Assembly (NCBI GenBank): GCA_963663405.2
Contig: CAXXSM010000004.1
Span: 29,450-93,449, forward strand
Source: a bacterium
GTDB taxonomy: Bacteria > Hinthialibacterota > Hinthialibacteria > Hinthialibacterales > Hinthialibacteraceae
Direction of reading: 5' to 3'
DNA length: 64,000 nt
The position numbers were made by a program, and so were the translations under genes. This document shows positions 1,183 through 42,840 of this stretch, piece after piece. Below the pieces are notes generated by a model that saw only the letters and a list, made by a program, of their open reading frames with translations, made no database searches and was not told where the DNA came from. Each line of letters begins with the position of its first letter. The first letter of the stretch is position 1.

Positions 1183-3129
1183 ATGGAGAAGACAACATCC
1201 AGGATTCTTCGATCCCAACAGCTGACAGTAATTTGCATTGCTCTTTTCTGCTTCTTCTGGACTACGGCCAACGTTTCGAATAAATCGTTGAATAAAGTGT
1301 TGGGATGGGGAGAATTAATCGAGGCGATACGAGATGAACCTTCATTTCAAAAAGAAATTGATTGGCTTGTGCGACAAGCAAGAGAGGAAGTCAATAAAGG
1401 TTTGGTTCGTCGCGCTTACCGGCTAGAAGATATTGGTCTCCACAGAACATGGTTAGATGGCCGCTCTGAAGCGCTCGAAGATGAAATCCGTGAGACTTTC
1501 GCGCTGGCCATGAGCGATTTCGCGGCTTGCAATACACTATCGAGGATGCTGCCCATGGTAGCGGCCGCCGCGAAGATTACAAACGATACTCTTCTTCGAG
1601 AGCATGTGATCGCTCAGTTGGAAGAGATGAGCGGTTGGCAGCCTTTGCAACGCCCTGGTTGGACACTCTACAAGCCGGGAAACCGGCTGCCATCAGATGG
1701 AAAGGACGGAAATTGGTTAGCAACCGGTACAGGTGTACGCGCGATCATAACGACGCTGGAGATCATGGGAGATGACATCAGTGACACATTAAAAACATCT
1801 CTGGCTGATTTACTCGAAAAAGAAATTACAGGTGTGGTTGAGGATTGGGAATTCAAGAGGCCTTGGTTTGTTCGCAGTAACAACGCTATTACAAATCAAT
1901 GGGTTTTACCGACGGAAGGACTCGTGCGAGCGTGCTTGTATTTGGGTATCGACAAACACAAGGAGGCTTATGAACTGGGTGTAAAGAATTTACTGCAAGC
2001 CCTTTCCGTTCATGGAAAGGCCGGTGAGTTTGAAGAAGGAATCGGATACGCCGCTTTTACCTTAACTTCCATGCTACACACAGCGCGCGCCATGGCTGTC
2101 TTAAATGACCGGCGCGCTATTGAACATCCATTTCTAATCCATTTCCCGACTTGGGCTGTACACCATATCCAACCAGGGAGGATGTCTGTGAACTGTTTCG
2201 ACGCAGGAAACGCACAAATCTCCAAGGAGAATATGGTCTGGCGCTCCCTATTTTCTCTATTGGTATTTGGAACGGGAAGCGAAGTAGCCAACTGGGCTTT
2301 GCAGAACCAGTTTGATGGGCCATCCGAAGATCTAGCTGGTCTAGCGTGCCGCGTATTAAGCCGAGAAATAAGCCAAACGCCTCCCAAATCTTTCGCCGCT
2401 TATGACCGGGCGGCGATGGTTGTCTGGCGTGACAATTGGGGAAACGATGCCACTGGAGTTTGGATTCGTGGCGGTCACGAACTGGATCAGCACGATCACC
2501 AAGACCGGGGACACGTAAACTTTATTGCGCAAGGCAAACCGATACTAATTGAAGCCGGCACACCATCGTATTCCAATCCAGATATGGGTGTTCATTACGC
2601 TTCTGGCGCTGGCCATAACGTGTTGCAGATTGGAACGTTTTTTCCCGAGCGTCCTTATCCCGCGCAGACCACCCCACGCTATACTGGTTGGCAACAACCG
2701 GGTTGTGTATCGTCAATCACCGTACATCAGCTCAATGAGCAAAGAGGAAAAGTCCATGTCGAGTGCAGTGATTGCTATACGGAAACACGACAATGGCTAC
2801 GTGAAGTCGATTGGACAGCGCAAGAACTCTGTATCCGGGATATCGTTAGCCTGAAAGAAAGCAATGAGATCATACTATTTCGCTATCATCTTGGGACTAA
2901 TGAAACCATCCGGATAAAAAACGCAGATCATCGTTATGAAGTTCAGTGGTCCGACGCTGTAATTAATATCCTGGGAAGTGTACCTTTGGAACTTTCCCAG
3001 TATAAAGCGCCAGACTCGACAATAACGGCCAAAGAAGACTTCATGCATACCTGCTTGGAAATAAGAACTAAACAAGCAATCTCCGAAGTAAATATTGAAG
3101 TTACTGTAACGCCTATTCATACAAAATAA
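1183..3129 (+). CDS. Heparinase II/III-like polysaccharide lyase, secreted or membrane-anchored
   Basis: N-terminal hydrophobic segment; EEGIGY, HDHQDRGH, LIEAG..SY and GHNVL motifs. Confidence 0.8.
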   Translation: MEKTTSRILRSQQLTVICIALFCFFWTTANVSNKSLNKVLGWGELIEAIRDEPSFQKEIDWLVRQAREEVNKGLVRRAYRLEDIGLHRTWLDGRSEALEDEIRETFALAMSDFAACNTLSRMLPMVAAAAKITNDTLLREHVIAQLEEMSGWQPLQRPGWTLYKPGNRLPSDGKDGNWLATGTGVRAIITTLEIMGDDISDTLKTSLADLLEKEITGVVEDWEFKRPWFVRSNNAITNQWVLPTEGLVRACLYLGIDKHKEAYELGVKNLLQALSVHGKAGEFEEGIGYAAFTLTSMLHTARAMAVLNDRRAIEHPFLIHFPTWAVHHIQPGRMSVNCFDAGNAQISKENMVWRSLFSLLVFGTGSEVANWALQNQFDGPSEDLAGLACRVLSREISQTPPKSFAAYDRAAMVVWRDNWGNDATGVWIRGGHELDQHDHQDRGHVNFIAQGKPILIEAGTPSYSNPDMGVHYASGAGHNVLQIGTFFPERPYPAQTTPRYTGWQQPGCVSSITVHQLNEQRGKVHVECSDCYTETRQWLREVDWTAQELCIRDIVSLKESNEIILFRYHLGTNETIRIKNADHRYEVQWSDAVINILGSVPLELSQYKAPDSTITAKEDFMHTCLEIRTKQAISEVNIEVTVTPIHTK

Positions 3130-3268
3130 TTCCACCTGGAAATCCTCTTTTAGTTCCAAGCATTTGGATTTCTCAAATTACGCTTTCCCTTTTTCACTTC
3201 TTTTCAACATTGGATCAGTATATAAACTCTTTTTTCAAACACACGATTTTCAAAACGTTGCAGCGTAA

Positions 3269-3284
3269 CCGAAAAATATATAAA
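3269..3284 (+). promoter_or_regulatory. Archaeal-like BRE+TATA motif, probable original promoter of module copy 1; a divergent TATA lies at 3219-3226
   Basis: CCGAAAAA-TATATAAA; positional equivalent of 33841-33856 once the IS at 3307-5414 is removed. Confidence 0.5.
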
Positions 3285-3306
3285 TCCTCTCTTGTTTCCA
3301 CTCTAG

Positions 3307-5414
3307 CCTGAATTTCCACAAGTACTAATTCCCCTAAGAAAACCTATCTAAATTATTGTTATCAATCCATCCCCAGGATCATTTTCTTCAAAGATTGTTC
3401 GGAAAAAATCACATTTTTCAGACTCCGACAAAAATAATGTGTCTTTTTATGCTTAGTTAAATAATAAATCTATAAAGTGCTTGTGTACTTAGATAATACC
3501 AACTATAATATAGATATAAATTACTCTTCTCCAATATATATAGACTTATTTGCGATAGGGTGGATGAGACTATGAGATAGAAGGAGATACAAACCTTATG
3601 TCTACGTTAAGGAATCCGCTAAGACACGAAGCCAAATTCTTCTTGGAACCAGAGAATCCAAAACAACGTCAGTACGAGGCTCTGCGAGCTTATTTTGTTG
3701 AAAATATTCCTGCCAAGGACGCTGCCTACCGTTTTGGATACACACCAGGCGCGTTTCATGTCCTTTGTCACCAGTTTCGCCATGATCCTGATAAAGTATT
3801 TTTTGTCCAAACTCGACCCGGGCCAAAACACAGTCCCAAGAAAGATATTTCTAGAGAACGGATTATTCAACTTCGTAAGAAAAATTATTCGGTGCAGGAT
3901 ATTCACTTCACTTTGAAAGAAGAAGGATTGAACCTCAGTACTGTATCCATTTGGACAATCCTCAAACAAGAAGGTTTTTCACGCCTCCCCAGACGAGCTG
4001 ATGAGGAGCGGCCGAAAAGACCCAGGCCTGAACAAGCCGCTTATGCCGATATTCGGGAACTCTCGTTTACTCCACGCGTTATTGAAACACACCTTGGAGG
4101 TGTATTTTTACTTTATCGAATTCTGGCCGAGATGAAAATTCATAAGATCCCCAAATCTTTACAATGGTATGGATCCAAAATGATCCCTCCAGAAAACGCC
4201 TTTCTCTCTTCTTTATTGCTCAAGTTAATCGGCAAGGAAAGAAAAAGCCACGTCATGGATTTAGTGTTCGATGAAGGGGTGGCTCTTGCGAATGGCCTGA
4301 ACGTCGTTCCCAAGACCGCGTATATTTCAGAATACTCGGAAAGGATTACTCATGAAGACAATCTGAATTTTATGCATTATTGGCTCAAGAATCTTAGAAA
4401 AACGAATTGCATAAAAGGAAAATCCTTCAATTTGGATTTTCAATCCATTCCCTATTTTGGGGAAGAAGATGTGATTGAAAAGCATTATGTTTCCATGCGT
4501 TCTCGCCGTCAAAAAGCCATTTTAGTGTTCTTTGCCCAGGATGCGGAATCGAAAATATTTTGTTACAGCAATTCGGATTTGCGAAAAGGAGAGGAGTCGG
4601 ATGAAATCTTTCGATTTATCGAATTCTGGAAAAAACAAACGGGAAGGAAGCCTCCTCACTTGGTCTTTGATTCACAGCTGACAACCTACAAAAACTTATC
4701 TAAACTGAACCATGAAAATATCACTTTTGTCACTCTAAGGAGGAGAACTCCTCAACTTCTTCAAGAAATTGCGAATGTGCCCCTTTCCGCATGGCGGCGA
4801 ATTAAACTGAGTAATGTGGCCAGGAAATATAAGACTCCGAAAGTGATCGATAAGGAAATACAACTCCGAGATTATAATGGTGTTGTCAGACAACTATTCG
4901 TAAAAGAACTGGGACATGACCTTCCTACTATCATTATTACGAATGATAAAAAAACCTCCTCCTCCGAACTCATTTCACGGTATGCTCGGAGAATGTTGAT
5001 CGAAAATTCTATAGCCAATGGAGTGGATTTCTTTCATAATCGAGCCCTATCATCTTCCGTCGCCATTCGAATTGATTTTGATGTTCTTTTGACTCTTGTC
5101 GGTCAGGCCACTTATCACATATTGGCTAAAAAACTACGAGGATACGAATATTGTGGAGCCGACGTGATTTTCCGAAAATTCATCGATACTCCAGCCAAGA
5201 TCTTCATCGGGAAAAAAGAGATAGAGATACGATTGAACAAACGGGCCAACAATCCTATACTTCTTGAATCGGGCTTAATCAATACTACCTTTAAACTGCC
5301 ATGGGTGAATAACAAAAATTTTATAATTACTCTTCGCTAAGTTTCACAATATGGATTCATGTAATACGTTTATTAGTTAATTTCTTAGATTAATTATTGA
5401 AGTGGAAATCCAGG
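3307..5414 (+). mobile_element. Complete IS with DDE transposase (IS1380/IS4-superfamily-like)
   Basis: Terminal inverted repeats CCTGAATTTCCAC (3307-3319) and GTGGAAATCCAGG (5402-5414), 1 mismatch. CTAG on both flanks (3303-3306, 5415-5418) is a 4-bp target duplication or part of the ends. Confidence 0.9.
3598..5340 (+). CDS. DDE transposase
   Basis: N-terminal HTHs; LDFQSIPYFG / LVFDS / YARRMLIENSI triad; enclosed by inverted repeats. Confidence 0.88.
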   Translation: MSTLRNPLRHEAKFFLEPENPKQRQYEALRAYFVENIPAKDAAYRFGYTPGAFHVLCHQFRHDPDKVFFVQTRPGPKHSPKKDISRERIIQLRKKNYSVQDIHFTLKEEGLNLSTVSIWTILKQEGFSRLPRRADEERPKRPRPEQAAYADIRELSFTPRVIETHLGGVFLLYRILAEMKIHKIPKSLQWYGSKMIPPENAFLSSLLLKLIGKERKSHVMDLVFDEGVALANGLNVVPKTAYISEYSERITHEDNLNFMHYWLKNLRKTNCIKGKSFNLDFQSIPYFGEEDVIEKHYVSMRSRRQKAILVFFAQDAESKIFCYSNSDLRKGEESDEIFRFIEFWKKQTGRKPPHLVFDSQLTTYKNLSKLNHENITFVTLRRRTPQLLQEIANVPLSAWRRIKLSNVARKYKTPKVIDKEIQLRDYNGVVRQLFVKELGHDLPTIIITNDKKTSSSELISRYARRMLIENSIANGVDFFHNRALSSSVAIRIDFDVLLTLVGQATYHILAKKLRGYEYCGADVIFRKFIDTPAKIFIGKKEIEIRLNKRANNPILLESGLINTTFKLPWVNNKNFIITLR

Positions 5415-5418
5415 CTAG

Positions 5419-5790
5419 CGTAAAAACCAAAAACAGCTACCGGAACATTCCATTCTCTGCCACACAAGACAGATGACGAATGTTCGCTTGAGCTGTTAGA
5501 ACTCGAGACCTTTTCGCAAATCCGGGGGATACAGGTGTAATAACCTGAACCGTTGAACGGCGACATCCATTAGGTCTCGCAATTGTACTGTCTACATTGT
5601 TCTCGACGAGAACGTGCGAGACAACGATTTCTGTAGTGAAAACTCTACTCATCTTCGCTTTATAAACACACCAATATTCTACAAGAAAATTCAATCCCAA
5701 TACATTCAAAGAAAGGAGGTCCCGTTTTTAAAATTGAGATGGAATTCATGCCCCGACAGGCGCCCAAGTGACCTGCCGGGTCAAAGAAAA
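5419..5790 (+). ncRNA. Putative structured leader RNA or ssDNA element, copy 1
   Basis: Stems 5432-5438/5491-5497, 5443-5450/5478-5485, 5504-5511/5572-5579, 5752-5760/5772-5780; motifs AACCGTTGAACxGCGA and TAGTGAAxACTCT shared with 33880-34225. Confidence 0.55.
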
Positions 5791-5806
5791 ATGGAGGTAA
5801 AGAACA

Positions 5807-6073
5807 ATGAATCAACCCAATTTAGTGATTGACAAACTTGGAGAGAAATCGATGCAAACAATTGTATCAAGAAGAGTCTTTGAAACATTGACTCCAGAAC
5901 AGATTCATCAAGCGTTTACGATTCTCTTTGAGAAAATGAAAGTTCCTGATCCGGACAATCCCAACCTTTGGACCGTGCATGTCAGGGATCACAGGTTATG
6001 GGGCATTCTGGATGAAGGAGCCGGTACTGATGGGCAAGATCTCGTATCTCTGATCTATCCCGAGGATTATTAG
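5807..6073 (+). CDS. Small MGE protein with C-terminal LIYPEDY motif
   Basis: GGAGG RBS; paralog at 34240-34503; PExY-type tail resembles DUF960-like mobile-element proteins. Confidence 0.85.
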   Translation: MNQPNLVIDKLGEKSMQTIVSRRVFETLTPEQIHQAFTILFEKMKVPDPDNPNLWTVHVRDHRLWGILDEGAGTDGQDLVSLIYPEDY

Positions 6074-6676: not shown

Positions 6677-6715
6677 GGCCGGATGGAATCCAGATTCTGT
6701 TCGGCCATTTTTTTT
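6677..6715 (+). terminator. Intrinsic terminator-like hairpin inside the module
   Basis: GGCCGGATGGAAT...ATTCTGTTCGGCC + T8; pairing is kept in copy 2 at 35103-35137. Confidence 0.7.
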
Positions 6716-6989: not shown

Positions 6990-7045
6990 TCTGCTCTCAA
7001 TCTATGAACGAATGATTTCGGGCGTAAAGCCCGCAAACGAACAAA

Positions 7046-7069
7046 CCCGGCAATTGCCGGGATTTTTTT
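7046..7069 (+). terminator. Terminator-like hairpin just before the AAA gene RBS
   Basis: CCCGGCAATTGCCGGG + T7; equivalent hairpin at 37664-37689. Confidence 0.65.
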
Positions 7070-7089
7070 CATTAGAAAGGAGAAAAAAT

Positions 7090-8185
7090 ATGAATACTAT
7101 TACCTGTCAACTTTGTGGAGAATCAATCCATGGCGCTTTATATGGCCACTTGGGTGAATGTCACCGCACAACAGCGCAGGAGTACCTGAAGCAATATCCA
7201 GGCGCTCCATTAGTGGCGCCGGCATTGCTCAATCAGATCCAATCCGGCAAAACCATCAAACGAACACCAGTAAATGCAAGCGAAGAGTTCCGCATTCATG
7301 ACGCGGCGCTCAAAAAGCGTAATGGCGCTAATCCTATGGCGCCTAACCTCGATCCACATTATCAGTTCCCGCCTGAAGCCGCTTACTTGATTCACGCTAT
7401 CAACCATCAGGAAAACGTCATGATTGTTGGTCCCACGGGCACGGGTAAATCATCGTTGGTTATACAGCTTGCTGCCCAAACCAATACTCCTTTACGGCGT
7501 TGCAACCTGAGTGGTGAGACCACGGTCTCTGATTTCTTGGGCCGCTGGACTGTACGTGGTAAAGAGATGGTCTACAGCGAAGGCATCTTACCCACTGCGA
7601 TGAAGAACGGTGACTGGCTATTACTGGATGAGATCGACGCGGCTCTGCCGAACATCCTGTTCGTGCTCCAGAGCGTACTCGAAGAATGCGGTAAACTCGT
7701 GCTTCTCGAAAAAGATGGTGAGATTATCGTTCCTCACCCCAATTTCCGTATCATCGCCACCGCCAACACGATCGGTAATGGGGATGAATCCGGATTGTAT
7801 GCGGGTACTCAGATTCTGAACGAGGCGTTCAAGGACCGTTTCGACACAGTCATCTATCTGGACTACCCGGATGAGAAGATCGAAACGGAAAATTCTGTCT
7901 CAAAAAGTATCCAACCTGAAAAAGACTGATATCAAACGTTTGGTGAAATGCGCACGCCAAGTCCGGGAAGCAGCGGAACGCGAAGAGTGTTATTGCAGTT
8001 TCTCGACACGGCGGTTACTCGCATTTGCTAGAAAGTACGATCAACTCGGTAACCTGATCAAAGCATTGGAACTGACTGTTCTCAACAAACTTTCCCGGGA
8101 TGACCGGCGCGTGGTCGAAGAGATCGCGCAACGGCGCCTGGGAGACCTCATGAATCCCCAACCGGCAGGAGCGAATGAATCATGA
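7090..8185 (+). pseudogene. MoxR/CbbQ/CobS-like AAA+ ATPase with N-terminal C2H2-like Zn finger; frameshift near 7890
   Basis: GPTGTGKS, LLLDEID, IATANT, AFKDRF, FSTRRL; one extra A relative to the intact paralog 37707-38801. Confidence 0.88.
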
Positions 8186-10061
8186 AAAACCTTAACGGAT
8201 TAGAAACCACCATGGAGCGTGTCGGACGGATCTTGTCACGCAAGTACAACATCTCCGTCCGATGCAAAGGAAACGAATGCAAGACCGACGGTCAGACCAT
8301 CTGGTTGCCAGCTTTACCGGACAACATCTCAGAGTCGTTGTGGAATTTAGTTCGTGGCGAGCTCGATCACGAGACCGCCCATATCCTCTTCAGCGACTTT
8401 GATGGCCCTATGAAAGATTTCAAACAGAAATGGGGCGATTTCGGATTTGATACACTCAATGTCATCGAAGACGTTCGAGTCAATTATGCTATGCAGAAAG
8501 AGTATCCGGGCTCACGGCAAAACATTCTGCACAGCATCGAAGAGATCACCCAAACTCATCCCATCGATCAAATGCCTTTGCCAATTCGGTTCTTATGCAG
8601 CCTGTTCCTCGCCGGAATGGATCTGCCATATGACCCGTACGGCGAAGACGCGATTGAAATGGTAGAACAATTTAAGAACGATGCGGAGCGGTTCAAATCC
8701 CTTCGCAATACCAACGAAGCATGTGAGATGGCGGAAAGCATTCTGAAGCGTTTGAAACGCCAAGCAGAGAAAGAGAGACAATCTTCAAGTTCCCAGCAAT
8801 CTAAGAATAAACAAGGGAATCAAGAATCACAGTCTCAATCCTCTTCCTGTGAAACCGACCAACAATCGCCTGAGGAAGATCTCCAATCTTCACAAATCGA
8901 TTCCTCTAGCGGGGATGAACAATCTGATAATCTGCACAGAGATCTTGAGGATCATAAGGATGATCCTGGGGATCAACAAGATGATTCGAGCTCAAAGTCG
9001 CCTTTCAGCTCGAACAGCAGCAAATCAGATAAGACTGGGGATGCTGATCAAAGCGCCTTGGAGCAGGCGCTAGCCGGACAATACTCATCCACCGGTCATC
9101 CATTCGAGCTCCAGGGAACTATCAGAGAGCAAGTACAAGAAGAATTCGGTAGTGGAACAAACCAAGCCTACCGGGTATACGATCCATCGCTGGATAAAGC
9201 CGTTACGCCTCTAGTACTGGATAATGGAGAAACCTATCAGAATCTAAGCAATGTCGTTCGTCCCCATGTAGGCGCTCTTCGACAACAGTTGATTCGGACT
9301 CTCCGATCGCGCGATGCCAGGTTCTGGGTCAGCGACCAGGAATAAGGCCAAGTCAATAGCAAAAGGCTTTACGCGCTGCTCAATCAAGGCTCGAACAAAG
9401 TCTTCCGGCAGATCCGAGAATGCGAATCCGATTCCGTAGCCGTTTCGCTTCTTATCGATCTATCCGGCTCAATGAACGGACCACGGATCTACCTGGCTCG
9501 TCAGGTCGCTATTCTGTTCGCTGAAACACTCAACCAGCTGCGTATCCCCTCGGAAGTGATCGGTTTTACCACCGAACCTTCTAAACGGGCCTTCGCGAGA
9601 TTGACACGGGAAACGGGAATGGATTTACAGGAACTCTCTAAACTCTATACCCGCTTTTTCCCTGCGTCTATTCCATCTTCAAAGCGTTTGAGGAACCGTT
9701 CCGGGCTCTGAAGCCTCGTGTCCCCGCTATGAACGCCCTGGAATACACGCCCATCGACGACGCCATCATTTTCACTGCGAAACGGATTGTCGTTCGGAAG
9801 GAAACTTGGAAGATCATCCTAGTCCTCACGGATGGAGAACCGTACAGCGGGAATCCGGCGATGCAGCTGACTGTCATCAAACATCTCGAAGAGAACCTGC
9901 ACAAATGCGAACAGGCCGGAATCGAGTGTGTGGCTGTTGGCATAAAAACAGACTACGTAAAGAATTTCTTCAAAGAAAACGTAGTCGTTCAAAACCTGCC
10001 TGAACTCCCAAAAGTGTTCTACACCAAGTTCTCCGAACTCCTCCGCAGAAACCGCAAATAA
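8182..10061 (+). pseudogene. CobT-like protein (HExxH domain, acidic linker, vWA); nonsense at 9343-9345 and frameshift near 9655
   Basis: LDHETAH, DLSGSM MIDAS, LTDGEP; GAA>TAA relative to copy 2. Confidence 0.88.
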
Positions 10062-14849: not shown

Positions 14850-14859
14850 GTTTTAGATC

Positions 14860-20500: not shown

Positions 20501-20528
20501 CTTGTTCGAAAAAGAGGAGAGCCAATGA
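17488..20528 (+). CDS. DUF1156 adenine DNA methyltransferase; two frameshifts near 18295 and 18400
   Basis: HLWWARRPL, DMFAGGGAIPLEA, bridging frame PVAYLWTRTVKCKNPSC, TDPPYYD. Confidence 0.9.
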
Positions 20529-27356: not shown

Positions 27357-27553
27357 TAACTAAATACGGTTAAGGATCAGGATACATCAATTTTTGAGCA
27401 GAAGTGATATCAATTTGAATATGAAAATAAACTAGCAATTGATTTGATATAAAAAATCCTCACAAATAATAATGACATAAATTAAACTGGTCACTGAGTT
27501 GAAATTATCCAAAGATTTATAAACCATACATTCTTACTTGGTCTAATGATAAA

Positions 27554-33566: not shown

Positions 33567-33740
33567 CTAATATTTCTTGACTCTCTTGTCTTTCCACTCG
33601 TTCTCAGCCAACCAAATGCGCGGATCTTCATATCGCAGCCGGTAAATAATGTGTTCGACTTTTAGGTTGACTTCTTTGAGCTGTTCTTCAATCCAATCGG
33701 CGATTTCATTCTCGGGTGTGTGGGGTGTGATTCGTTTCAT
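33567..33740 (-). CDS. 57-aa hypothetical protein, not in the ORF track
   Basis: MKRITPHTPENEIADWIEEQLKEVNLKVEHIIYRLRYEDPRIWLAENEWKDKRVKKY; ATG 31 nt after CCGTAACC-TTTAAATA. Confidence 0.6.
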   Translation of the reverse strand: MKRITPHTPENEIADWIEEQLKEVNLKVEHIIYRLRYEDPRIWLAENEWKDKRVKKY

Positions 33741-33763
33741 GGGACAAGGAGAATTGTCACTAC

Positions 33764-33856
33764 TATTTAAAGGTTACGGTTCGCAGTCACTCAAGAGATA
33801 CAACAATCCTCTCAAAATGAAGTTGTCCAAACGCTAAAAACCGGAAGATTTATAAA
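33764..33856. promoter_or_regulatory. Divergent BRE+TATA-like pair upstream of module copy 2
   Basis: - strand CCGTAACC-TTTAAATA (33779-33764); + strand CCGGAAGA-TTTATAAA (33841-33856). Confidence 0.6.
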
Positions 33857-33879
33857 TCGGAGAGAATTCACTTCTGCGC

Positions 33880-34225
33880 AAGAACAACAAAACACCATCC
33901 GAAAGTAGCATCTTTTCCACCAGGAAAATGAGATGACTTTCGGGTTGGAAAATAAAAAAAAGACCACATGAAACCATTGTCCGTATCCGGTTTTGTCCCA
34001 ACAAACCGTTGAACAGCGAATGAATGGTCTGTGGTCAAGACATGAAATCCATACGGGACATTCCCGTCGATAAACGTAAAATGGCGAGATTCGCCTAGTG
34101 AATACTCTCTGCCTCTCTTCTCGATCGATCCGATCGCATTTTCTATTCAAAACCGCATCCAAATAGCAAAACAACCTGGCAGGGCAGATACTGGCCTGCC
34201 AGGCCGTTTTGCCTCAACCATAACA
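33880..34225 (+). ncRNA. Putative structured leader RNA or ssDNA element, copy 2
   Basis: Stems 33899-33906/33936-33943, 33962-33968/34030-34036, 34175-34183/34195-34203; shared motifs at 34004-34019 and 34096-34108. Confidence 0.55.
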
Positions 34226-34239
34226 ATGGAGGTTCCAAA

Positions 34240-34503
34240 ATGAAAGAAACCAATCGAACAAGCAGTACCGTAGAAAGCCAGCCCCAGATCGTTGTGTCAC
34301 GAGCCGTATACGAAACATTGACACCGGAGGAAATCCATCACGCGTTCACGATTCTCTTTGAGAAGATGAAGGTTCCCGATCCAGCCAATCCCAACCTATG
34401 GACCGTCCAGATCAATGGAAGCCGGTTGTGGGGCATCCTGGATGAAGGAGCCGGAACCGATGGACAGAATCTCGTGTCGTTGATTTTTCCAGAGGATTAC
34501 TAA
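34240..34503 (+). CDS. Small PEDY-tail protein, paralog of 5807
   Basis: GGAGG RBS; high similarity to copy 1. Confidence 0.85.
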   Translation: MKETNRTSSTVESQPQIVVSRAVYETLTPEEIHHAFTILFEKMKVPDPANPNLWTVQINGSRLWGILDEGAGTDGQNLVSLIFPEDY

Positions 34504-34535
34504 TTCAATAAAAAAAATGAGGAGGTATCAAAACA

Positions 34536-34973
34536 ATGAAAAACACCAAAAGAAAAGGAAATCGAACGATGAAGGTCCATTACACTATCGTGGATGGAGA
34601 ACACGAGTACTGTGAGACGATCTTCATAAAATCGGATGGTGAAAACAAAGAAGATCAAGCTTACAAGGAACTCGCTGCGATGTACGCGTATGATGCGGAG
34701 GAAGAACGTGAAATCATGGCCAACCTTAAAAGCGATGGAATGGCGATGATCGGTTGCCGGGCCATCAAGGATGTTACAGTCATGGATTTGGATGAAGTAA
34801 CCGTCTTTGTGCGCGGTGGCGTCATCCAGGATATTCAAAACATCCCCGCTGGCGTAAGAATCCGTGTCCAGGATTACGATGTGGACAGTCTCACCGCACA
34901 AGAGCTACGCGAGAAAACGGAACCGGATGAAGAAGGTGATCCATGTATGGTCTCCACTTGGGGAAGTGAGTAA
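34536..34973 (+). CDS. Acidic hypothetical protein, paralog of 6111
   Basis: GAGGAGG RBS; similarity to copy 1. Confidence 0.85.
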   Translation: MKNTKRKGNRTMKVHYTIVDGEHEYCETIFIKSDGENKEDQAYKELAAMYAYDAEEEREIMANLKSDGMAMIGCRAIKDVTVMDLDEVTVFVRGGVIQDIQNIPAGVRIRVQDYDVDSLTAQELREKTEPDEEGDPCMVSTWGSE

Positions 34974-35102
34974 TCCACTTTCCTTTTTCTCACTCCTCGA
35001 ATCATCCTACAAGTTATCCTTCCCCCGCATAGATGATGCGCTACCTCAACATCAATGACATCGATGTTGATTAGTTCTATTTGAATCAATTCATAGGCAA
35101 AA

Positions 35103-35137
35103 GGCCGGATGGAACTCAGGTTCTATCCGGTCTTTTT
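35103..35137 (+). terminator. Internal terminator-like hairpin
   Basis: GGCCGGATGGAAC...GTTCTATCCGGTC + T5. Confidence 0.7.
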
Positions 35138-35181
35138 CAATTTCACCGTAAACCACACGAATCAAAGAAAGGAAAAAGAAA

Positions 35182-35418
35182 ATGTGCATCAAAGAAATCC
35201 AATGCCCGCATTGTGGAAATGAAAATGTGAAACGTATCCAGCTCTGCGTCGTGCTCCCTTCCAGCATCTATCGGAATCTCTACCAGGACGATCGTGGTTT
35301 GATCTGGGCGGAAGAGGAAATCGATTCTGTCGAAGACGGAATCAATCCAGTAATGGAATATCTCTACTGCCAAAACTGTGAGAAAGATTTCACCGATCCT
35401 GGAATCAAGATCCAATGA
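35182..35418 (+). CDS. Small acidic Zn-ribbon protein, paralog of 6753
   Basis: CPHC...CQNC. Confidence 0.85.
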   Translation: MCIKEIQCPHCGNENVKRIQLCVVLPSSIYRNLYQDDRGLIWAEEEIDSVEDGINPVMEYLYCQNCEKDFTDPGIKIQ

Positions 35419-35588
35419 GCTGATAACACTCATTGGAGCCAAGAATAAAGACGAACAGCTCTTAAGCTAAATAGATCCGCCTTCTTTTTGTTTTAAGAGA
35501 TGATATGAACATTGTTACCCACCAACGCTGCAGAGAATCAATTTATGTTACTAGGTTTTACCATTTTAGCGAACGTATCAAGCGATAT

Positions 35589-36329
35589 CTAATTTTTCAA
35601 TTGATTGAAGCGATTGGGATTAGCGTTGTATAAATCATTGGCTAGATGTTCAATGAATTGGTAGGGATCTTGGTTCGTCATTAATATCCTCAAGTGTCCA
35701 GTATCCTGAAAAAATAATTCTCTTTGACGTGGATCAATTGCCTTTTTTGAAAGAAAAAAGAAACAGAAAAAACCACCCAACATTATTCCCACCCATGCAG
35801 TTTCATCAATATCTGACATTCCTATACAGTGTATCATATTAGATGTGATGTCGATATGCTTTGAGGAATAGAGTATGACACACCCGTAAGTTTCTGTATC
35901 CCCTGGCACCTCCGAAAGGAGCATATTCCTGATAGTAGTCTCATGTTTTCCTAGGTTAATAGATGAGAATCCGTCTTGTGTACTTATTCCAACACGCCAA
36001 AGGATCGAAAGTTGAAATAATTTAAACTTTTTATAATCAATTTCACATTCAAAACCTTTTGCACTTTTTGTTGTGGTAGCAATGCATTCTCTCTCATATA
36101 GAACTTTGTGAGCATAACCTTCCCATTGGCTTAATTTGTTTTCACAATTCTTACATAATAATTTTTCACGGATTCCTTTTTGTACAATACGAGGATGCTT
36201 CCTATGCTCCGTGGAGAGAATATTAAAGCGATGCTTGCAGTCATAAAGCTGCATTTTTTCGTAAAAGAATTCCGGAATCACATGCGAGTTACATAGTTTT
36301 GCTTGTTGTAAGCATAGACGGCATTTCAT
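35589..36329 (-). CDS. HNH-like Zn-binding endonuclease-family protein (cargo)
   Basis: CRLC...SHVIP...LLCKNCEN; AT-rich gene. Confidence 0.7.
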   Translation of the reverse strand: MKCRLCLQQAKLCNSHVIPEFFYEKMQLYDCKHRFNILSTEHRKHPRIVQKGIREKLLCKNCENKLSQWEGYAHKVLYERECIATTTKSAKGFECEIDYKKFKLFQLSILWRVGISTQDGFSSINLGKHETTIRNMLLSEVPGDTETYGCVILYSSKHIDITSNMIHCIGMSDIDETAWVGIMLGGFFCFFFLSKKAIDPRQRELFFQDTGHLRILMTNQDPYQFIEHLANDLYNANPNRFNQLKN

Positions 36330-36506
36330 AATATCGTACATTCTTTGCAATCTTTCGTGAACATCACCTTATTAGTATAAATTCTTTTAGAGGTAGTCGA
36401 TCAGAGAATCCTACTTTTAAATTATTTGATTCAGCATACCTTTATCATCAGTTCCAACTGTCAGGCTTGCCAACTTATAACGATATTTTTTACATAAATA
36501 TCACCA

Positions 36507-37412
36507 TCAATTAGCTTTATAGTTAGAGTGCTTGATCTGTGTCACACTCATGTCGCTGTGTATTTGATAAATATATATGTGAAAGTTCTCACCACTAATA
36601 TTTAGTTGGTTCTCGGCATCATCCTGAAGTTCCTTAATACTATCGTAAGAAAGGTTAAGTGGATTGAAGAGCATACTGCGAACCACAACAAGAACTGCGT
36701 CAGCTTCTTTAATGCTAACTTCCATATATCCCAATCTTGCCTTGATTGATCTAGCTTCCATTGATGTAGAAACACTTGGTGCAATCACGGCTACGCGTAG
36801 TCCAGACGATGTAGTATTTTGCTGATCTGAAACATGTGGTGGCTGTTGTGTGGTTCTTGAGCTATCTCCCGCTTGCGCAACAGTAATTAAAAGTAGTTCC
36901 ACGTGTTTGCGTAATACCTCCTTTTCTTCATCTGTAAGTTTATGTAATCCCATTTCATGTTGATTAGCTGGAGGGAAAATATTGTCAAATGTAAGTAACA
37001 CTTTGCCTGGAGTCATGTTGGCTTGTTTCAAACTTAACTCCATATGCAAAAGTTCTTCCAAAGAGTATTGCTTCCAATCAATGTCTTTTTTTGAAGTCTG
37101 CACTATTCGCTTTGCAGTGTTTATCCTCGCTTCAGCATCAATTAACTGTTGCAAGGAGGAATTTTGCCAATCAAGGGTGATCGCGTGTTCGCGTTTGATT
37201 CTTGCCACAGTGTCAAGCCGCAATTCAATGTTAGATATTTCAAGAAGGGAAGCGTTTCGCCAGTCAACATCTATGCCATGGGTTTTCTTGATACGTAAAG
37301 CGGCGCTTTCACGCATATGAGAATCATCTATCTTTGATTGTCCATCTACATAAGTGATGGTAAAAAAGAAAAAAGTGATAAAAGTTGGAAGTAGTTTTAA
37401 ATATGTTCTCAT
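36507..37412 (-). CDS. Secreted hypothetical protein with three ~31-aa repeats (cargo)
   Basis: Signal peptide MRTYLKLLPTFITFFFF; repeats RI......DW...SL..L...E; GGAGG RBS. Confidence 0.75.
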   Translation of the reverse strand: MRTYLKLLPTFITFFFFTITYVDGQSKIDDSHMRESAALRIKKTHGIDVDWRNASLLEISNIELRLDTVARIKREHAITLDWQNSSLQQLIDAEARINTAKRIVQTSKKDIDWKQYSLEELLHMELSLKQANMTPGKVLLTFDNIFPPANQHEMGLHKLTDEEKEVLRKHVELLLITVAQAGDSSRTTQQPPHVSDQQNTTSSGLRVAVIAPSVSTSMEARSIKARLGYMEVSIKEADAVLVVVRSMLFNPLNLSYDSIKELQDDAENQLNISGENFHIYIYQIHSDMSVTQIKHSNYKAN

Positions 37413-37663
37413 TTCAATCAATCCTCCCTTGAGTACTTGATGCATCAGTTCTGTCTACTTCATACAATTGGAAAAAGAGTACGAGAATGACTTTGATTAA
37501 TTGGCCACTCTTATAATTGTTATTTTTTGTGACGCGATCAATTCAATTATGGTTTCTTTTTTATTATAGGCTCAAATAAATGGAGTATACAAGCTGGAGG
37601 TATCAAAAAATAATATATGTAAGATTTACGAACATTTACAGTTTTTTTAATTTCACACATTAA

Positions 37664-37689
37664 CCTGGCTCTTTTGCCAGGATTTTTTT
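37664..37689 (+). terminator. Terminator-like hairpin before the AAA gene
   Basis: CCTGGC-TCTTTT-GCCAGG + T7. Confidence 0.65.
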
Positions 37690-37706
37690 ATTAGAAAGGA
37701 AACGAG

Positions 37707-38801
37707 ATGAATACTATCACCTGTCAGCTTTGTGGAGAGTCAATCCATGGCTCCTTGTATGGTCACTTGGGTGAATGTCACCGTACAACAGCGCAAGAGT
37801 ACCTGAAGCAATATCCGGGCGCGCCTTTGGTGGCTCCCGAATTACTCAACCAGATTCAATCCGGCAAAACCGTCAAACGAACACCGGTTCAAGCCACAGC
37901 GGAATTCCGGATACATGACGCGGCGCTCAAAAAGAGAAATGGCGCAAATCCGATAGTGCCTAACTCTGATCCGCATTACCAATTCCCGCCCGAGGCCGCT
38001 TACCTGATCCACTCCATCAACCACCAGGAAAACGTGATGATCGTCGGTCCGACCGGCACAGGGAAAAGTTCGCTGGTCATGCAGCTCGCCGCCCAGACCA
38101 ATACGCCTTTGCGGCGCTGCAACCTAAATGGCGAGACTACGGTCTCTGATTTCTTGGGACGCTGGACTGTTCGCGGCAAAGAGATGGTCTACAGCGAGGG
38201 CATCCTGCCCACCGCCATGAAGAATGGAGATTGGTTGCTGCTCGATGAGATCGACGCGGCGCTGCCGAATATTCTATTCGTGCTCCAAAGCGTGCTCGAA
38301 GAATGCGGCAAGCTCACACTCCTTGAAAAAGACGGCGAGATTATCGCTCCCCATCCCGATTTTCGCATCATCGCCACTGCCAATACGCTTGGTAATGGAG
38401 ATGAGTCCGGACTATACGCTGGAACGCAGATACTCAACGAAGCCTTCAAAGACCGCTTTGACACAGTCATATATTTGGACTACCCGGATGAGAAGACCGA
38501 AACCGAAATCCTCTCTCAAAAAGTCTCCAACCTAAAAAAGACTGACATCAGACGACTGGTGAAATGCGCTCGCCAGGTCCGGGAAGCGGCGGAACGCGAA
38601 GAGTGCTATTGCAGTTTTTCCACCCGTCGCTTGCTCGCATTCGCCAGGAAATACGATCAACTCGGTAATTTAACTAAAGCGTTGGAACTGACCGTTCTCA
38701 ACAAACTCTCCCGTGATGACCGGCGCGTCGTTGAAGAAATCGCGCAGCGGCGACTGGGAGATCTCATGAATCCCCAACCGAAAGGAGCAAATGAATCATG
38801 A
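37707..38801 (+). CDS. MoxR/CbbQ/CobS-like AAA+ ATPase, intact
   Basis: Zn finger C..C...H...H, GPTGTGKS, LLLDEID, IATANT, FSTRRL. Confidence 0.92.
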   Translation: MNTITCQLCGESIHGSLYGHLGECHRTTAQEYLKQYPGAPLVAPELLNQIQSGKTVKRTPVQATAEFRIHDAALKKRNGANPIVPNSDPHYQFPPEAAYLIHSINHQENVMIVGPTGTGKSSLVMQLAAQTNTPLRRCNLNGETTVSDFLGRWTVRGKEMVYSEGILPTAMKNGDWLLLDEIDAALPNILFVLQSVLEECGKLTLLEKDGEIIAPHPDFRIIATANTLGNGDESGLYAGTQILNEAFKDRFDTVIYLDYPDEKTETEILSQKVSNLKKTDIRRLVKCARQVREAAEREECYCSFSTRRLLAFARKYDQLGNLTKALELTVLNKLSRDDRRVVEEIAQRRLGDLMNPQPKGANES

Positions 38802-40679
38802 AGAATCTAAGCGGATTAGAAACAACCTTGGAACGTGTTGGTCGAATCTTGTCACGCAAGTACAACATCTCGGTCCAATGCAAAGGAAACGAATGCAAGA
38901 CCGACGGCCGGACTATCTGGCTGCCGGCGCTGCCGGACGAGATCTCTGAGTCGTTATGGAGTTTGGTCCGTGGCGAGCTGGATCATGAGACCGCCCATAT
39001 CCTCTTCAGCGACTTTGATGGCCGCATGAAGAATTTCAAACAGAAATGGGGCGATTTCGGATTCGACACACTTAATGTCATTGAAGACGTGAGAGTCAAT
39101 TACGCCATGCAGAAGGAGTATCCGGGTTCCCGTCACAACATCCTGCACAGTATCGCGGAGATCACTCGTACCCATCCCATCGATCAAATGCCTCTCCCAG
39201 TCCGGTTCTTGTGTGGTCTGTTCCTCGCTGGAATGGATCTGCTCTATGACCAGTATGGCGAAGACGCGATCGGAATGGTGGAACAATTCAAGAACGATGC
39301 GGAGCGGTTCAAATCCCTCCGTAACACTGACGAAGCCTGCGCAATGGCGGAAAGTATCCTGGAACGCCTCAAGCATAAAGCTGAGCAAGAAAGACAACCT
39401 TCAAATTCAAAGCAGCAAAATAGCGCGGAAAAGAACCAAGAATCACACTCACAATCCTCATCCGGTGAATCCAAACAAGAATCAACAGAGAAGGAGCAGC
39501 GATCAGCAAAATCCGCTTCCTCTAACGGTCAAGAAGAATCTGACAATCGGCAAAACAGTTCTGGGGAACAAAAGGATGATTCTATGGATAAACAAAAATG
39601 GTTCTAGTTCAGATGCGCATTCAAACATGAAAAGCAGTCCACAAGATGAATCTGAGAATGGAAATCAAGGAGCTATGGAGCAAGCCCTACACGGACAATA
39701 CTCATCCACCGGCCATCCATTCGAGCTCCAAGGCACTATCAGAGAGCAAGTCCAAGAAGAATTCAGCAATGGAACAAACCAAGCCTACCGGGTATACGAT
39801 CCATCGCTGGATAAAGCTGTCACGCCTCTATCATTGGATAACGGTGAAACCTATCAAAACCTGAGCAATGTCGTTCGGCCTCATGTAGGCGCTCTTCGTC
39901 AGCAGTTGATTCGAACTCTCCGCTCGCGCGATACCCGGTTCTGGGTCAACGACCAAGAAGAAGGCCAGGTCAATAGCAAAAGGCTTTATACGCTACTCAA
40001 CCAGGGCTCGAACAAAGTCTTCCGACAAATCCAGGAATGCGAATCGGACTCGGTGGCGGTGTCGCTTCTTATCGATCTATCCGGCTCGATGAACGGCCCA
40101 CGCATCTACCTGGCCCGCCAGGTCGTCATTCTGTTCGCTGAAACACTCAACCAGCTGCGTATCCCGTCAGAGGTGATCGGTTTTACAACCGAGCCTTCCA
40201 AACGGGCCTTCGCTCGATTGACACGGGAAACGGGGATGGATTTGCAACAACTCTCCACACTCTACACCCGTTTCTTTCCCTGTGTCTATTCCATCTTCAA
40301 GGCGTTCGACGAACCATTCCGAGCGTTGAAACCGCGCGTTCCCGCCATGAACGCCCTGGAGTACACGCCCATCGATGACGCTATCATTTTCGCCGCTAAA
40401 CGGATCGTCTTTCGGAAGGAAACGCGAAAAATCATCCTTGTCCTTACCGATGGAGAACCGTATAGCGGAAATCCAACGATGCAGCTGGCTGTCATCAAAC
40501 ATCTTGTAGAAAATCTGCGCAAATGCGAACAGGCCGGAATCGAGTGTGTGGCCGTTGGCATCCAAGCGGATTACGTAAAGAATTTCTTCAAAGAGAACGT
40601 AGTCGTTCAAAACCTGCCCGAACTCCCCAAAGCGTTCTACACGAAGTTCTCGGAATTGCTCCGCAGAAACCGCAAATAA
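38798..40679 (+). CDS. CobT-like HExxH + vWA protein; one frameshift near 39595 in an A run
   Basis: LDHETAH; DLSGSM; LTDGEP; two overlapping ORFs join in the linker. Confidence 0.88.
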
Positions 40680-40721
40680 CCTGCAACAAATAACCATTTA
40701 ATTTCGAAAGGAGATTTATCA

Positions 40722-41192
40722 ATGGGTACCTGTGTCCAAAATCCATCCTGCTTCGCCCTGTTTGATCCCATCGCTCCGGAATGCGCGAGCTGTGGCATAC
40801 AAACCAATTGTATGCGTGAACAAGAAAGACGCCTTGGCGATTGTGATTCAAAACAACCGCAGCAGAGCGTCGAAACGACGCCAACATCGAATCAAAGCTT
40901 AAAACCGAAAAGAAAGGAGAAAATCCAAACCAAGATTCCAAGCCAAACCGGAGATGAGCAATACATCCCCGAACATACTCGCAAACCATTGGAAATCCCG
41001 CCGGTTGGCTCCACGATTCAAACCACCTACCGTGGTAAAACCTACGAAGCGATCATCGTGGACGATCCATCCAACAAACGCTGCGATGGCCGATCCATCC
41101 TGTTCAACGGAACCGTCTATCGAACACTGACCGCCGCCGCGCACGCCATTGCGCCTGGAATCAATTCTGGATCGGTCTGGCAAGAAATCTAA
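40722..41192 (+). CDS. Cys-motif plus RAMA/DUF2924-like protein, paralog of 10105
   Basis: As copy 1. Confidence 0.78.
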   Translation: MGTCVQNPSCFALFDPIAPECASCGIQTNCMREQERRLGDCDSKQPQQSVETTPTSNQSLKPKRKEKIQTKIPSQTGDEQYIPEHTRKPLEIPPVGSTIQTTYRGKTYEAIIVDDPSNKRCDGRSILFNGTVYRTLTAAAHAIAPGINSGSVWQEI

Positions 41193-41215
41193 AAAAAACC
41201 AGAAAGGAAAACACC

Positions 41216-41566
41216 ATGAATAATAACGGCAGTAAAACAGCTAACGCAAAATCAAACCGAAACGTCGGCCGTGGATTACGTGACATCCTGACCGAACAAT
41301 CGATCTTCGACAGCCATTTCAACGATCTTCAAGAGCATGTTAAAGCCGCCCGGATCGGCGCGGCGATTCTCGAACTGATCGATATCGTCGAAGCCAAATA
41401 TCAACCGGTCATCTTCAAAAGCGTCACCGCCTATCGCGCTGTAGCTCAGGAAGAATCCACCGAAGAAATCGGACGAAAACTTAACGATCTGGAACGTCAA
41501 CGTATCCATCGTGAAACGGAATGTCAGAAACCGAAACGGCGATGGTATTTTCTATTCTTACGGTAG
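41216..41566 (+). CDS. GRGL-motif hypothetical protein, paralog of 10594
   Basis: As copy 1. Confidence 0.85.
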   Translation: MNNNGSKTANAKSNRNVGRGLRDILTEQSIFDSHFNDLQEHVKAARIGAAILELIDIVEAKYQPVIFKSVTAYRAVAQEESTEEIGRKLNDLERQRIHRETECQKPKRRWYFLFLR

Positions 41567-41585
41567 GATTGATTGCGATGAATTG

Positions 41586-41608
41586 AAGGGGAGAAATCCC
41601 CTTTTTTT
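41586..41608 (+). terminator. Terminator ending module copy 2
   Basis: AAGGGGA-GAAA-TCCCCTT + T run. Confidence 0.75.
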
Positions 41609-41747
41609 AAGGAATTATCTTCCATATTGAAAATTATTAGTGGACATAATCCAGCTGGATTCTCTGAATTATTTCATGCTTTTACTTACTTCGATGAGAT
41701 CCTCCAGCCAACTGGTCCAACGGTGGCCAGTTAGCCGGAGGATACAA

Positions 41748-42596
41748 ATGAAACCAAACCAAAATACCAAAGATCGGATCCAACAAAGCCGGAAAATCAT
41801 CCAGGAGACCATCGCCAAATTGGGGGAACAGCTGGAGAAAGGATACTCCATTGAGATGACTCGATACCTGAAAACCATGGCGCTTTTCCATGCGTACTCC
41901 ACCTCCAATCAGTTTCTCATTTTGGCCCAGCGCCCCGAAGCCACGCAAGTCGCCGGATTTCAAACCTGGAAACGCCTCCATCGATCCATTAAACGCGGCG
42001 AAAAAGCCATCCGCATCCTCGCTCCGGTTTGCTACAAGAAGAAAACAACTTCAACACAGTCAAAAGAAACAAAGCAAGAAGACTCGAAAGAGCCAGTCGA
42101 GGAAGACCTAATATATTCCTTCCGCACGGTCTGTGTTTTCGATCAAGCACAGACGTATGGCGCAAAACTACCGGAACCGTTTCGGGCACAAGGTGAAGCG
42201 AGGCAATGTCTTTCCATGCTGGAGCAAACTGTCCGAAGAAATGGAATCCAACTTGATTATGGATACACAGGCCGGGCGTACGGCTATTCCAAAAAAGGAT
42301 CCATTACGATCAAAAAGGGGATGAATTCCGCGGAAACCTTCGCTGTGCTCGCGCATGAGTTTGCCCATGAATTGCTTCATCAAAGACAAACGTCCAACGA
42401 TTCCTGCTCGTTGCGTGAATTGGAAGCTGAAGCCGTCGCCTGTGTTGTCTGTGAACGGTTCAGCGTACAGGCTATCCAAGCGTCGTCCGATTACATCCGT
42501 CTCTGGGAAGGTGACAAAACCAAGCTACTCAATCGTCTGGAGAAGATCCGCCGATGCGCATCCACAATCATTACTCAGATCGAATCTCTCACATAA
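41748..42596 (+). CDS. ardC: ArdC-like ssDNA-binding / metallopeptidase antirestriction protein
   Basis: FHAYS..NQ.LI..Q.P.ATQVAGF..W......IKRGEKAIRI.AP; VFD..QT.G; HEFAH; ELEAE; GGAGG RBS. Confidence 0.85.
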   Translation: MKPNQNTKDRIQQSRKIIQETIAKLGEQLEKGYSIEMTRYLKTMALFHAYSTSNQFLILAQRPEATQVAGFQTWKRLHRSIKRGEKAIRILAPVCYKKKTTSTQSKETKQEDSKEPVEEDLIYSFRTVCVFDQAQTYGAKLPEPFRAQGEARQCLSMLEQTVRRNGIQLDYGYTGRAYGYSKKGSITIKKGMNSAETFAVLAHEFAHELLHQRQTSNDSCSLRELEAEAVACVVCERFSVQAIQASSDYIRLWEGDKTKLLNRLEKIRRCASTIITQIESLT

Positions 42597-42840
42597 AAGG
42601 GGAAGAATTTACACTACGCAGGGATTGATTGAAAATCAATTGTCACATGCAGTGGTTGGTCGTGAATCTTGGAATCATTCAACGGATTCTTCCGAATGGA
42701 GGTATTCCAAGATTCTATTTATCCTAGACTGGAATAGGCTCTATAGAACGTCAATCGAAATGTAAAAGGCAAATACTCCTGGAATCACTGAAATCGGATT
42801 CTCTTTCCGCAATGCTTCACTCCAATGACTTTATTTTCCC

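Follow-up and report, generated by a model that had tools for sequence, protein, structure and literature searches.

Which role can be given to a folded, non-coding stretch of about 360-390 nt that stands directly ahead of the same small gene at two places in the window, the whole 64,000-nt stretch of DNA analysed here? The earlier note had described an unrecognised structured leader and had offered four options for it: an antiterminator, a riboswitch, a ribozyme or a single-strand promoter. We found that a conserved folded leader heads an establishment-type operon of a Cdc6/HerA integrative element. Copy 1 (5420..5806, +) is counted from a predicted start, the 24th base past a promoter-like box when an intervening insertion sequence (IS) is discounted, to the base preceding the start of the PEDY gene; copy 2 (33880..34239, +) runs from its predicted start to the last base ahead of PEDY. 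The leader is not present just twice, as had been thought: the genome has five units of leader plus PEDY. Besides the two of the window, three more are on contigs C86, C110 and C141, and the leaders on these three contigs share 88-96% identity with copy 2.

The motifs described for the leader, and their spacings, were read correctly. ATCCGG lies at 5520-5525 in copy 1 and at 33985-33990 in copy 2, followed by a core 16-mer (5548-5563 and 34004-34019) that is identical at 15 of 16 positions. Further downstream are TCGA..ACGT, GCGAGA and the tail, with the pattern TAGTGAA[A/C/T]ACT; together they occupy 5603..5646 (+) in copy 1. In copy 2 the corresponding region (34067..34136, +, with the tail at 34096-34108) ends in a hairpin of 6 bp with a short T run (34122-34136), for which copy 1 has no counterpart. 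The tail, TAGTGAA[A/T]ACTCT in these two copies, starts at 5634 and 34096, so that core and tail are 86 nt apart in copy 1 and 92 nt in copy 2. The 3´ part of copy 1 also contains a second TATA-like palindrome (5659-5666) and an orphan ribosome-binding-like word (5714-5722), both absent from copy 2. Contigs from four sequencing runs yielded leader variants only; one variant of copy 1, on a single low-depth contig, still has both the tail and the closing stem's 3´ arm, and a mismatch of the final hairpin is mended in it.

The homology of the two leaders goes beyond what chance would give. Their local alignment scores 70, against 36 +/- 6 for dinucleotide shuffles, and none of 1000 shuffles scored as high. 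Overall identity is 56% (50% for shuffles), which is below the 71-86% found for the downstream genes and spacer of the same two copies. The likeness therefore lies in conserved islands within a more diverged stretch.

The stems were followed in the predicted RNA ensemble. Folded as RNA, copy 2 is far more stable than its shuffles (z -6.2) and copy 1 moderately so (z -2.3). A long 5´ hairpin is predicted in both, irregular in copy 1 (5433..5496, +; pair probability 0.99 at its base) and at 33897..33945 (+; 0.94) in copy 2. It is followed by a closing stem around a domain that holds ATCCGG and the core 16-mer. In copy 1 this stem has 8 bp, 5504-5511 pairing with 5572-5579 (domain 5504..5579, +; 0.97), and in copy 2 an outer and an inner stem close the domain (33962..34036, +), with the outermost arms at 33962-33968 and 34030-34036. 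The claim that both copies have the same stems in the same order thus holds for the 5´ hairpin, the closing stem and the final hairpin (pair probabilities 0.87-1.0 in both copies) and fails for the structural context of the middle motifs, where the pair probability of CGG/CCG falls from 0.98 in copy 2 to 0.01 in copy 1. Small hairpins drawn from the core and from the tail have probabilities of about zero in both copies and were dropped.

The notion that conserved loops sit on exchanged stems has to be qualified as well. Closing stems exist in both copies, but they are not exchanged column by column: in the alignment, GAGACC/GGTCTC of copy 1 falls on GAAACC/GGTCT of copy 2, and GACCACA/TGTGGTC is an outer helix extension peculiar to the copy-2 group. 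Because the two stems stand in different registers, the covariation argument for the closing stem is weaker than had been stated, and true compensation comes down, by eye, to about one pair (T-A versus A-T). Within the copy-2 group of four leaders, 13 of 154 paired columns vary compared with 39 of 194 unpaired columns (Fisher p=0.002), with the helices drawn from these same sequences, which favours such a result. This lower variation in paired columns, together with the covariation of the final hairpin, supports the view that the stretch is a functional folded nucleic acid.

The final hairpin is the best-supported structure of the whole region. It lies at 5751..5780 (+) in copy 1 and at 34166..34212 (+) in copy 2, just ahead of the ribosome-binding sites (RBS) at 5793-5797 and 34228-34232. 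A C[A/T]GG-N10/11-CC[T/A]G core is found in 10 of 12 leaders of first genes; the other two have a hairpin with a different core. Across ten loci, which include two pairs of closely related ones, covariation is seen in the outer stem, in which Watson-Crick pairs fill 46 of 60 cells, compared with about 21 when arms of different loci are combined, and only one in 20,000 permutations was as high. For this count the hairpins were re-anchored by script, since the MAFFT alignment was mis-registered; RNAalifold on that alignment gave no pairs, and even there the pair count exceeded that of shuffles. The final hairpin is a separate module that is more widely shared than the core domain. As its 3´ arm is complementary to the RBS in most loci (by eye), it is likely to protect the message or to keep the RBS free.

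The leader family proved to be as unfamiliar as had been supposed. No Rfam 15 family matches the window at its gathering score, and the best matches below the threshold are far below it and unrelated. A covariance model of the core retrieved exactly the five leaders in 35 genomes of the phylum, all in this one genome and none in the other 34, and nothing further above noise in 57 sources. The sensitivity of this model (R1) to distant forms is limited because its MAFFT alignment misplaces the 3´ stem arm of copy 1. In viral contigs the exact core-plus-tail pattern gave no match. Several candidates were set aside: eight pattern matches in GTDB genomes, all eight within open frames of at least 100 codons and taken as chance; ten viral matches to ATCCGG plus core, none with a tail, of which L067 and L068 have a suggestive fold but are located antisense inside a phage ORF and score 19 and 14 bits with the covariance model; and nhmmer matches on C155 (E 0.0085, inside a sulfatase ORF) and C21 (E 0.84, chance level).

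PEDY has homologs in two other genomes of the phylum (three loci) and at 14 metagenome loci, one of them spurious. Where PEDY lies inside an operon (four loci), there is no leader. Where PEDY opens an operon elsewhere, it is again preceded by a folded leader; these leaders fall into at least three other sequence types, none of which aligns with the leader described here. One second, wider type was seen at four metagenome loci (L024, L025, L026/L023 and L028), with a GCGGCG..GCCGCCGC stem, a hairpin with a five-base loop and the final hairpin. A likeness to the core, with 12 nt identical in L028 and 16 nt nearly identical in L024 (E 0.07 each), is not significant and gives at most a hint of old kinship. 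Our literature search, which covered listings and the beginnings of abstracts, with subscription papers and supplements outside its scope, found no description of the leader or of the element. This narrow range, with the core in a single genome, limits the importance of the leader for now.

The operon itself looks like the anti-defence-type operon of a mobile element. Its general order is PEDY (88 aa), a gene for about 144-145 aa, a zinc-ribbon gene, a CobS-like AAA+ gene, a CobT/vWA-like gene and genes for about 155-156 aa and 116 aa; copy 2 (34240..42596, +) in addition has two inserted opposite-strand ORFs behind the zinc-ribbon gene and ends with ArdC. Judged by gene content (ArdC, DUF2924 in a homolog of the gene for about 155-156 aa, and the CobS/CobT-like pair), these appear to be genes of the establishment or leading-region type, which we take to be typical of such regions. 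PEDY of copy 1 (5807..6073, +) resembles DUF960, DUF3768 and DUF6573 proteins and has no Pfam or NCBIfam match. Its language-model look-alikes in the Atlas carry DUF960, DUF3768, DUF6876 and DUF6573, and the best fold match is 2r41 with a middling score (Z 6.6, rmsd 2.6, 66 residues aligned). A profile search gave just 24 representatives; there was no match in PLSDB plasmids and one weak match in viral contigs.

The CobS-like gene of copy 1 (7012-8185) and the CobT/vWA-like genes of both copies (8182-10061 and 38798-40679) are split into two or three frames; on C110 and C161 the same genes are unbroken, with single frames of 364 and 626 aa. Copy 1 looks decayed, and its left backbone is absent. 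Past it lies cargo (11334-23428) that resembles a defence cluster, with an SNF2 helicase with NOV_C domain, a DEAD helicase, DUF1156, a methylase and DUF499, and a 520-aa frame at 25049-26611 (-) fuses a tyrosine integrase domain to an IS91-type Y2 transposase and a zinc-binding domain. The site seems to be a cargo hot spot: the place of leader and operon is taken in two other genomes by two small genes (L071:1171-1440 and L073:1171-1440), which by eye we take to resemble a HicB/HicA-type toxin-antitoxin pair. In G003 (L042) a cassette of three recombinases (2066-5315) breaks the operon right past PEDY, and a Cas3 gene (15509-17794) follows the operon.

The element that carries the operon encodes a tyrosine integrase, a HerA/TrwB-like ATPase and an Orc1/Cdc6 protein that passes the cut-off of TIGR02928. 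The tail of the ATPase (the C-terminal 200 aa, 42841-43443, -; pLDDT 89) is a winged helix plus a PD-(D/E)xK nuclease and has a weak match to the MobC relaxase (E 0.074), an identity for which Pfam as well as PDB sequence and fold searches gave no confirmation. The protein is possibly a fusion of coupling protein and relaxase; at E<=1e-20 it is found in 13 of the 35 genomes of the phylum. HerA had no match in viral contigs. Just past its stop codon a 16-nt tandem repeat (42779-42794, -) was observed, present at 8 of 15 loci (also L032, L034, L035, L038, L039, L045 and L057), always in the sense of the gene and often followed by a long palindrome. In G012 and G004 it forms the invariant 3´ arm of a hairpin with a variable 5´ arm, and contig C27 retains a remnant next to a disrupted backbone gene. 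This repeat is a candidate for the transfer origin or nick site. The operon points toward it in this genome; in G012 and G003 the operon has the opposite orientation, in G012 away from the repeat.

Upstream of the leader, a promoter-like box suggests how the leader could be transcribed. In copy 2 it lies at 33841..33856 (+), with a TATA-like octamer at 33849-33856. The homologous box of copy 1 (3269..3284, +), a purine-rich stretch followed by the octamer 3277-3284, is cut from its leader by the IS; the 60 nt upstream are 60% identical between the copies. The same TATA-like box (33764-33771) precedes a divergent 57-aa gene (33567-33740; both within 33567..33771, -) by 23 nt, counted to the ATG, and this gene has no RBS. 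By eye, the same box stands 22-23 nt ahead of the start codon of a small gene without RBS at 11 loci in seven genomes of the phylum, and the spacing recurs at four metagenome loci with a different intervening sequence. Such a spacing is presumably the geometry of archaeal leaderless genes. The small proteins form a family of about 55-70 aa (DH/DYII..LR.ED.R; here 33567-33740, and L024, L025, L026, L028 and L071-L078), again without RBS and with the box 22-23 nt ahead of the start; the gene is divergent from the leader in the window and co-directional with it, upstream of it, at the metagenome loci. The family is a candidate regulator.

Applied to the leaders, the box-to-start spacing of the small gene predicts transcription starts at 5420 and 33880, and an A-rich leader stretch does begin at the 24th base past the box in both copies. 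Similar boxes head the other backbone units of the element (9 of 37 TATA-like matches, those chosen for examination at unit heads or in the leader); TATA-like boxes at unit heads were seen at 27516, 29533, 31568, 33771 (-), 33849, 45463 (-) and 3277. In the host genome, which is 82% complete, no TBP or TFB was found. Genome-wide the bare box has no peak at 23 nt (27 of 5305); with the extended box, 4 of 118 matches are at 23 nt, and all four belong to the small gene without RBS. A TATA-like box with a TTTA/TATA core was not found ahead of the zinc-ribbon or CobS genes of copy 1.

The IS (3307..5414, +) is 2108 bp long with 13-bp terminal inverted repeats, and CTAG is duplicated on its two sides (3303-3306 and 5415-5418). 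Its 580-aa transposase (3598-5340) has weak IS1380/IS1634-like profile matches, none above the cut-off, and an identical IS copy is found on C141. Copy 1 of the leader starts 5 nt past the end of the IS, which sits between leader and box. Despite this closeness the leader is not an IS end or a dispersed repeat: the IS ends at 5414, the leader begins after the duplicated CTAG, and all five copies precede PEDY. The insertion has likely silenced or re-wired the unit of copy 1.

Inside the operon, hairpins followed by T runs resemble intrinsic terminators. Ahead of the zinc-ribbon gene they lie at 6677..6714 (+; 13 pairs, with G-T pairs on the + strand) in copy 1 and, with approximate ends, at 35101..35136 (+) in copy 2; ahead of the CobS-like gene they lie at 7046..7069 (+, directly ahead of the gene) and 37664..37689 (+). 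A GC-rich hairpin with T run 27-36 nt ahead of the CobS start was found at 10 of 11 loci, and at four of the five outside this genome. By the same test the site ahead of the zinc-ribbon gene is found in all six copies of this genome and at none of the five loci elsewhere (6 of 11), and one ahead of ArdC at four of seven. None was flagged directly ahead of the genes for about 144-145 aa, about 155-156 aa and 116 aa. Counted over the whole operon, hairpins with T runs exceed shuffles slightly or not at all, with 15 against 10.1 +/- 2.5 in one case and 7 against 7.6 in the other. Terminators within the downstream operon, a trait of conAn, put and EAR systems, are present here as predicted sites.

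Of the four options, an antiterminator fits these data best, though on indirect evidence, and we tentatively propose, as a possibility that falls somewhat short of probable, that the leader is a transcribed RNA acting as antiterminator. The TATA-like box of the element would be the promoter, with transcription starting 24 nt downstream; a 5´ RNA of 360-390 nt would be made from it and would be the species that folds. The hairpins with T runs in the operon would terminate, the leader RNA would let RNA polymerase pass them, and the core domain, from ATCCGG to the core 16-mer, would contact the transcription complex. If these hairpins do terminate, transcription must read through them to reach the distal anti-defence-type genes, and the obvious candidate for bringing this about is then a long leader specific to its lineage. 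As PEDY operons elsewhere carry unrelated leaders, the antiterminating part would have to be interchangeable. Also counting against the proposal are the divided strand signals, the confinement of the core domain to one genome, the missing leaders where PEDY lies inside an operon, the lack of TBP and TFB matches in the host and of a genome-wide 23-nt peak for the bare box, the whole-operon hairpin counts and the lack of a ConAn1-like gene ahead of the leader. A fuller version, which we regard as decidedly unlikely, would make the leader a new class of RNA-only processive antiterminator, in an element with an archaeal-style origin and TATA promoters that drive a terminator-studded anti-defence operon, with a core that element lineages could swap and a conserved hairpin guarding the first RBS. 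Clean tests are possible, with the predicted start, the near-invariant 16-mer, the covarying hairpin and the copy split by the IS, a natural mutant in which the promoter is separated from the leader.

The leader could instead be transcribed without causing antitermination, either as a gate that, like EGeRS1, blocks or tunes expression coming from upstream, or as a stabiliser of the message that sets PEDY translation through the final hairpin. EGeRS1 of pLS20 blocks read-through from an upstream promoter (PMC8708921), and the final hairpin is the one part common to the leader types (10 of 12). A T run follows this hairpin in L025 and L028, and a simple scan found two terminator-like sites within copy 2, but none in copy 1. 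A stricter test returned none in the four leaders of the copy-2 type and a single, unrelated site in copy 1, so no terminator is conserved in this leader class. An attenuator is unsupported for the same reason, as copies 1 and 2 have no terminator in common. A gate or stabiliser would also give no reason for the conserved 16-mer and for the hairpins with T runs downstream, and we consider it rather unlikely.

It is unlikely, too, that the leader acts as folded single-stranded DNA after transfer, as a single-strand promoter or primer signal (Frpo- or ssi-like) for early expression of the operon, even though the genes are of the leading-region type and point toward the post-HerA repeat here, and the ATPase has a nuclease tail and a weak MobC match. 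The relaxase identity and single-strand transfer are themselves putative. The pairing data on the strand are divided. In the outer closing stem of the copy-2 group all three pairs that vary are G-U on the + strand, the terminator-like hairpin ahead of the zinc-ribbon gene has its G-T pairs there too, and leaders of the G012/G004 type have GNRA-type loops (GCAA/GAAA/GGAA) on that strand. The final hairpin has five A-C and one G-T among 60 cells on the + strand, and in the core hairpin of copy 2 a C-A mismatch of the + strand becomes a wobble on the - strand; such A-C mismatches would be G-T wobbles on the template strand. In the shared stems of 13 leaders, with C110, C141, C86 and L020 left out as near-duplicates, four G-T face five A-C mismatches, and DNA folding z-scores are similar on both strands (-6.9/-6.3 and -2.7/-3.3). 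In copy 2 a promoter-proximal segment (33860..33872, +), upstream of the predicted start, is complementary to the tail motif in 12 of 13 pairs; in copy 1 the minus-strand duplex is the better one.

A failed test for its boxes speaks against a single-strand promoter: a sigma-70-type scan found a single site in each leader, where 1.1 and 1.0 were expected, and the two sites are not homologous in position. A conventional-looking box stands upstream. In addition, the operon is reversed in G012 and G003. If the post-HerA repeat is the transfer origin, the final hairpin is not bound to one transferred strand, because the operon runs toward the repeat here and away from it in G012 and both have the hairpin; on that condition the orientation favours RNA or duplex DNA for this hairpin.

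Duplex DNA would be the relevant form if the conserved words were binding sites for a regulator encoded by the element, with most stems incidental or cruciform. A tail-like 11-mer, in a pattern derived from these very sites, occurs four times in about 25 kb of element DNA compared with 83 times in 8.4 Mb, and all four lie in leaders or just downstream of two divergent boxes; a related TTCACT word follows the box at the metagenome loci. There is precedent in p576, whose establishment genes are under heptamer operators and a small repressor (PMC6294495, PMC8708921). Binding sites would account neither for the lower variation of paired columns nor for the covariation seen in the outer stem of the final hairpin, and this explanation appears improbable to us.

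A new class of ligand-sensing riboswitch or self-cleaving ribozyme, to which a near-invariant 16-nt segment within a stable stem ahead of an operon might point, is very improbable: no Rfam family matches at or meaningfully below its gathering score (HDV-like and group I intron readings were dropped on this ground), the core was not found in the 34 other genomes and is not kept in other PEDY leaders, the exact-pattern matches in GTDB and viral sequences looked like chance, no expression platform is conserved, and the downstream genes suggest no metabolite.

How anti-defence genes are switched on during establishment is understood in few plasmids, through single-strand promoters, a repressor and EGeRS1. 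EGeRS1 of pLS20 is an inverted-repeat-rich region of 400-600 bp ahead of ardC operons, with a mechanism that the account in PMC8708921 describes as unknown, undecided between RNA and ssDNA; ardC is typical of establishment regions (PMC8708921). The leader resembles it as a region of several hundred nucleotides, rich in inverted repeats, that occurs in several diverged copies directly ahead of establishment operons containing ardC (PMC8708921). By their description, several EGeRS1 copies lie on one plasmid, are 62-95% alike, GC-richer than the plasmid and without detectable promoter (PMC8708921), whereas each element here has one leader, with 56% identity between the two types and an upstream TATA-like box. 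A distant blastn search with copy 2 against PLSDB (72,556 plasmid records) gave 21-22 nt chance matches only.

Like Frpo and ssi sequences, the leader is a folded non-coding stretch ahead of genes of the leading-region type (PMC9849209, PMC11541004). In Frpo a single stem restores both the -35 and the -10 box (PMC9849209, PMC11541004); the leader, in contrast, has several hairpins instead of one stem-loop, no such pair of boxes in a stem as far as the sigma-70-type scan goes, and occurs with the operon in both orientations relative to the ATPase-nuclease gene. With cATT, the zipper-type attenuator in the 456-nt leader of the pLS20 conjugation operon, it shares its length and a long imperfect stem (PMC13401043). 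cATT is described as needing an intrinsic terminator complementary to an upstream stem-loop (PMC13401043), and copies 1 and 2 share no terminator.

In its working the leader resembles EGeRS1 and possibly also the antiterminating RNAs conAn2, put or EAR, without fitting the defining features of any of them. On conjugative plasmids, conAn2 RNAs span about 260-600 bp, are only 30-40% alike and antiterminate (PMC8191782). The leader is similar to these RNAs of Gram-positive plasmids in its size and its poor conservation, and it likewise heads a mobile-element operon that has terminators inside it, predicted ones in the present case (PMC8191782). conAn2 follows the gene of the conAn1 protein in the transfer operon and needs this protein at long range (PMC8191782). 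The leader, a candidate antiterminator, differs in its place ahead of PEDY in an establishment-type operon, and upstream of it, where the divergent 57-aa gene or the IS is located, no gene like ConAn1 was recognised. The antiterminators put of HK022 and EAR act as RNA alone, in cis and near the start of the operon (PMC8191782), as we propose for the leader. Both are much smaller than conAn2 (PMC8191782), and the leader has no Rfam match. A leader that just stabilises or gates its message would be of modest interest; one that antiterminates would join put, EAR and conAn2 on a very short list (PMC8191782).
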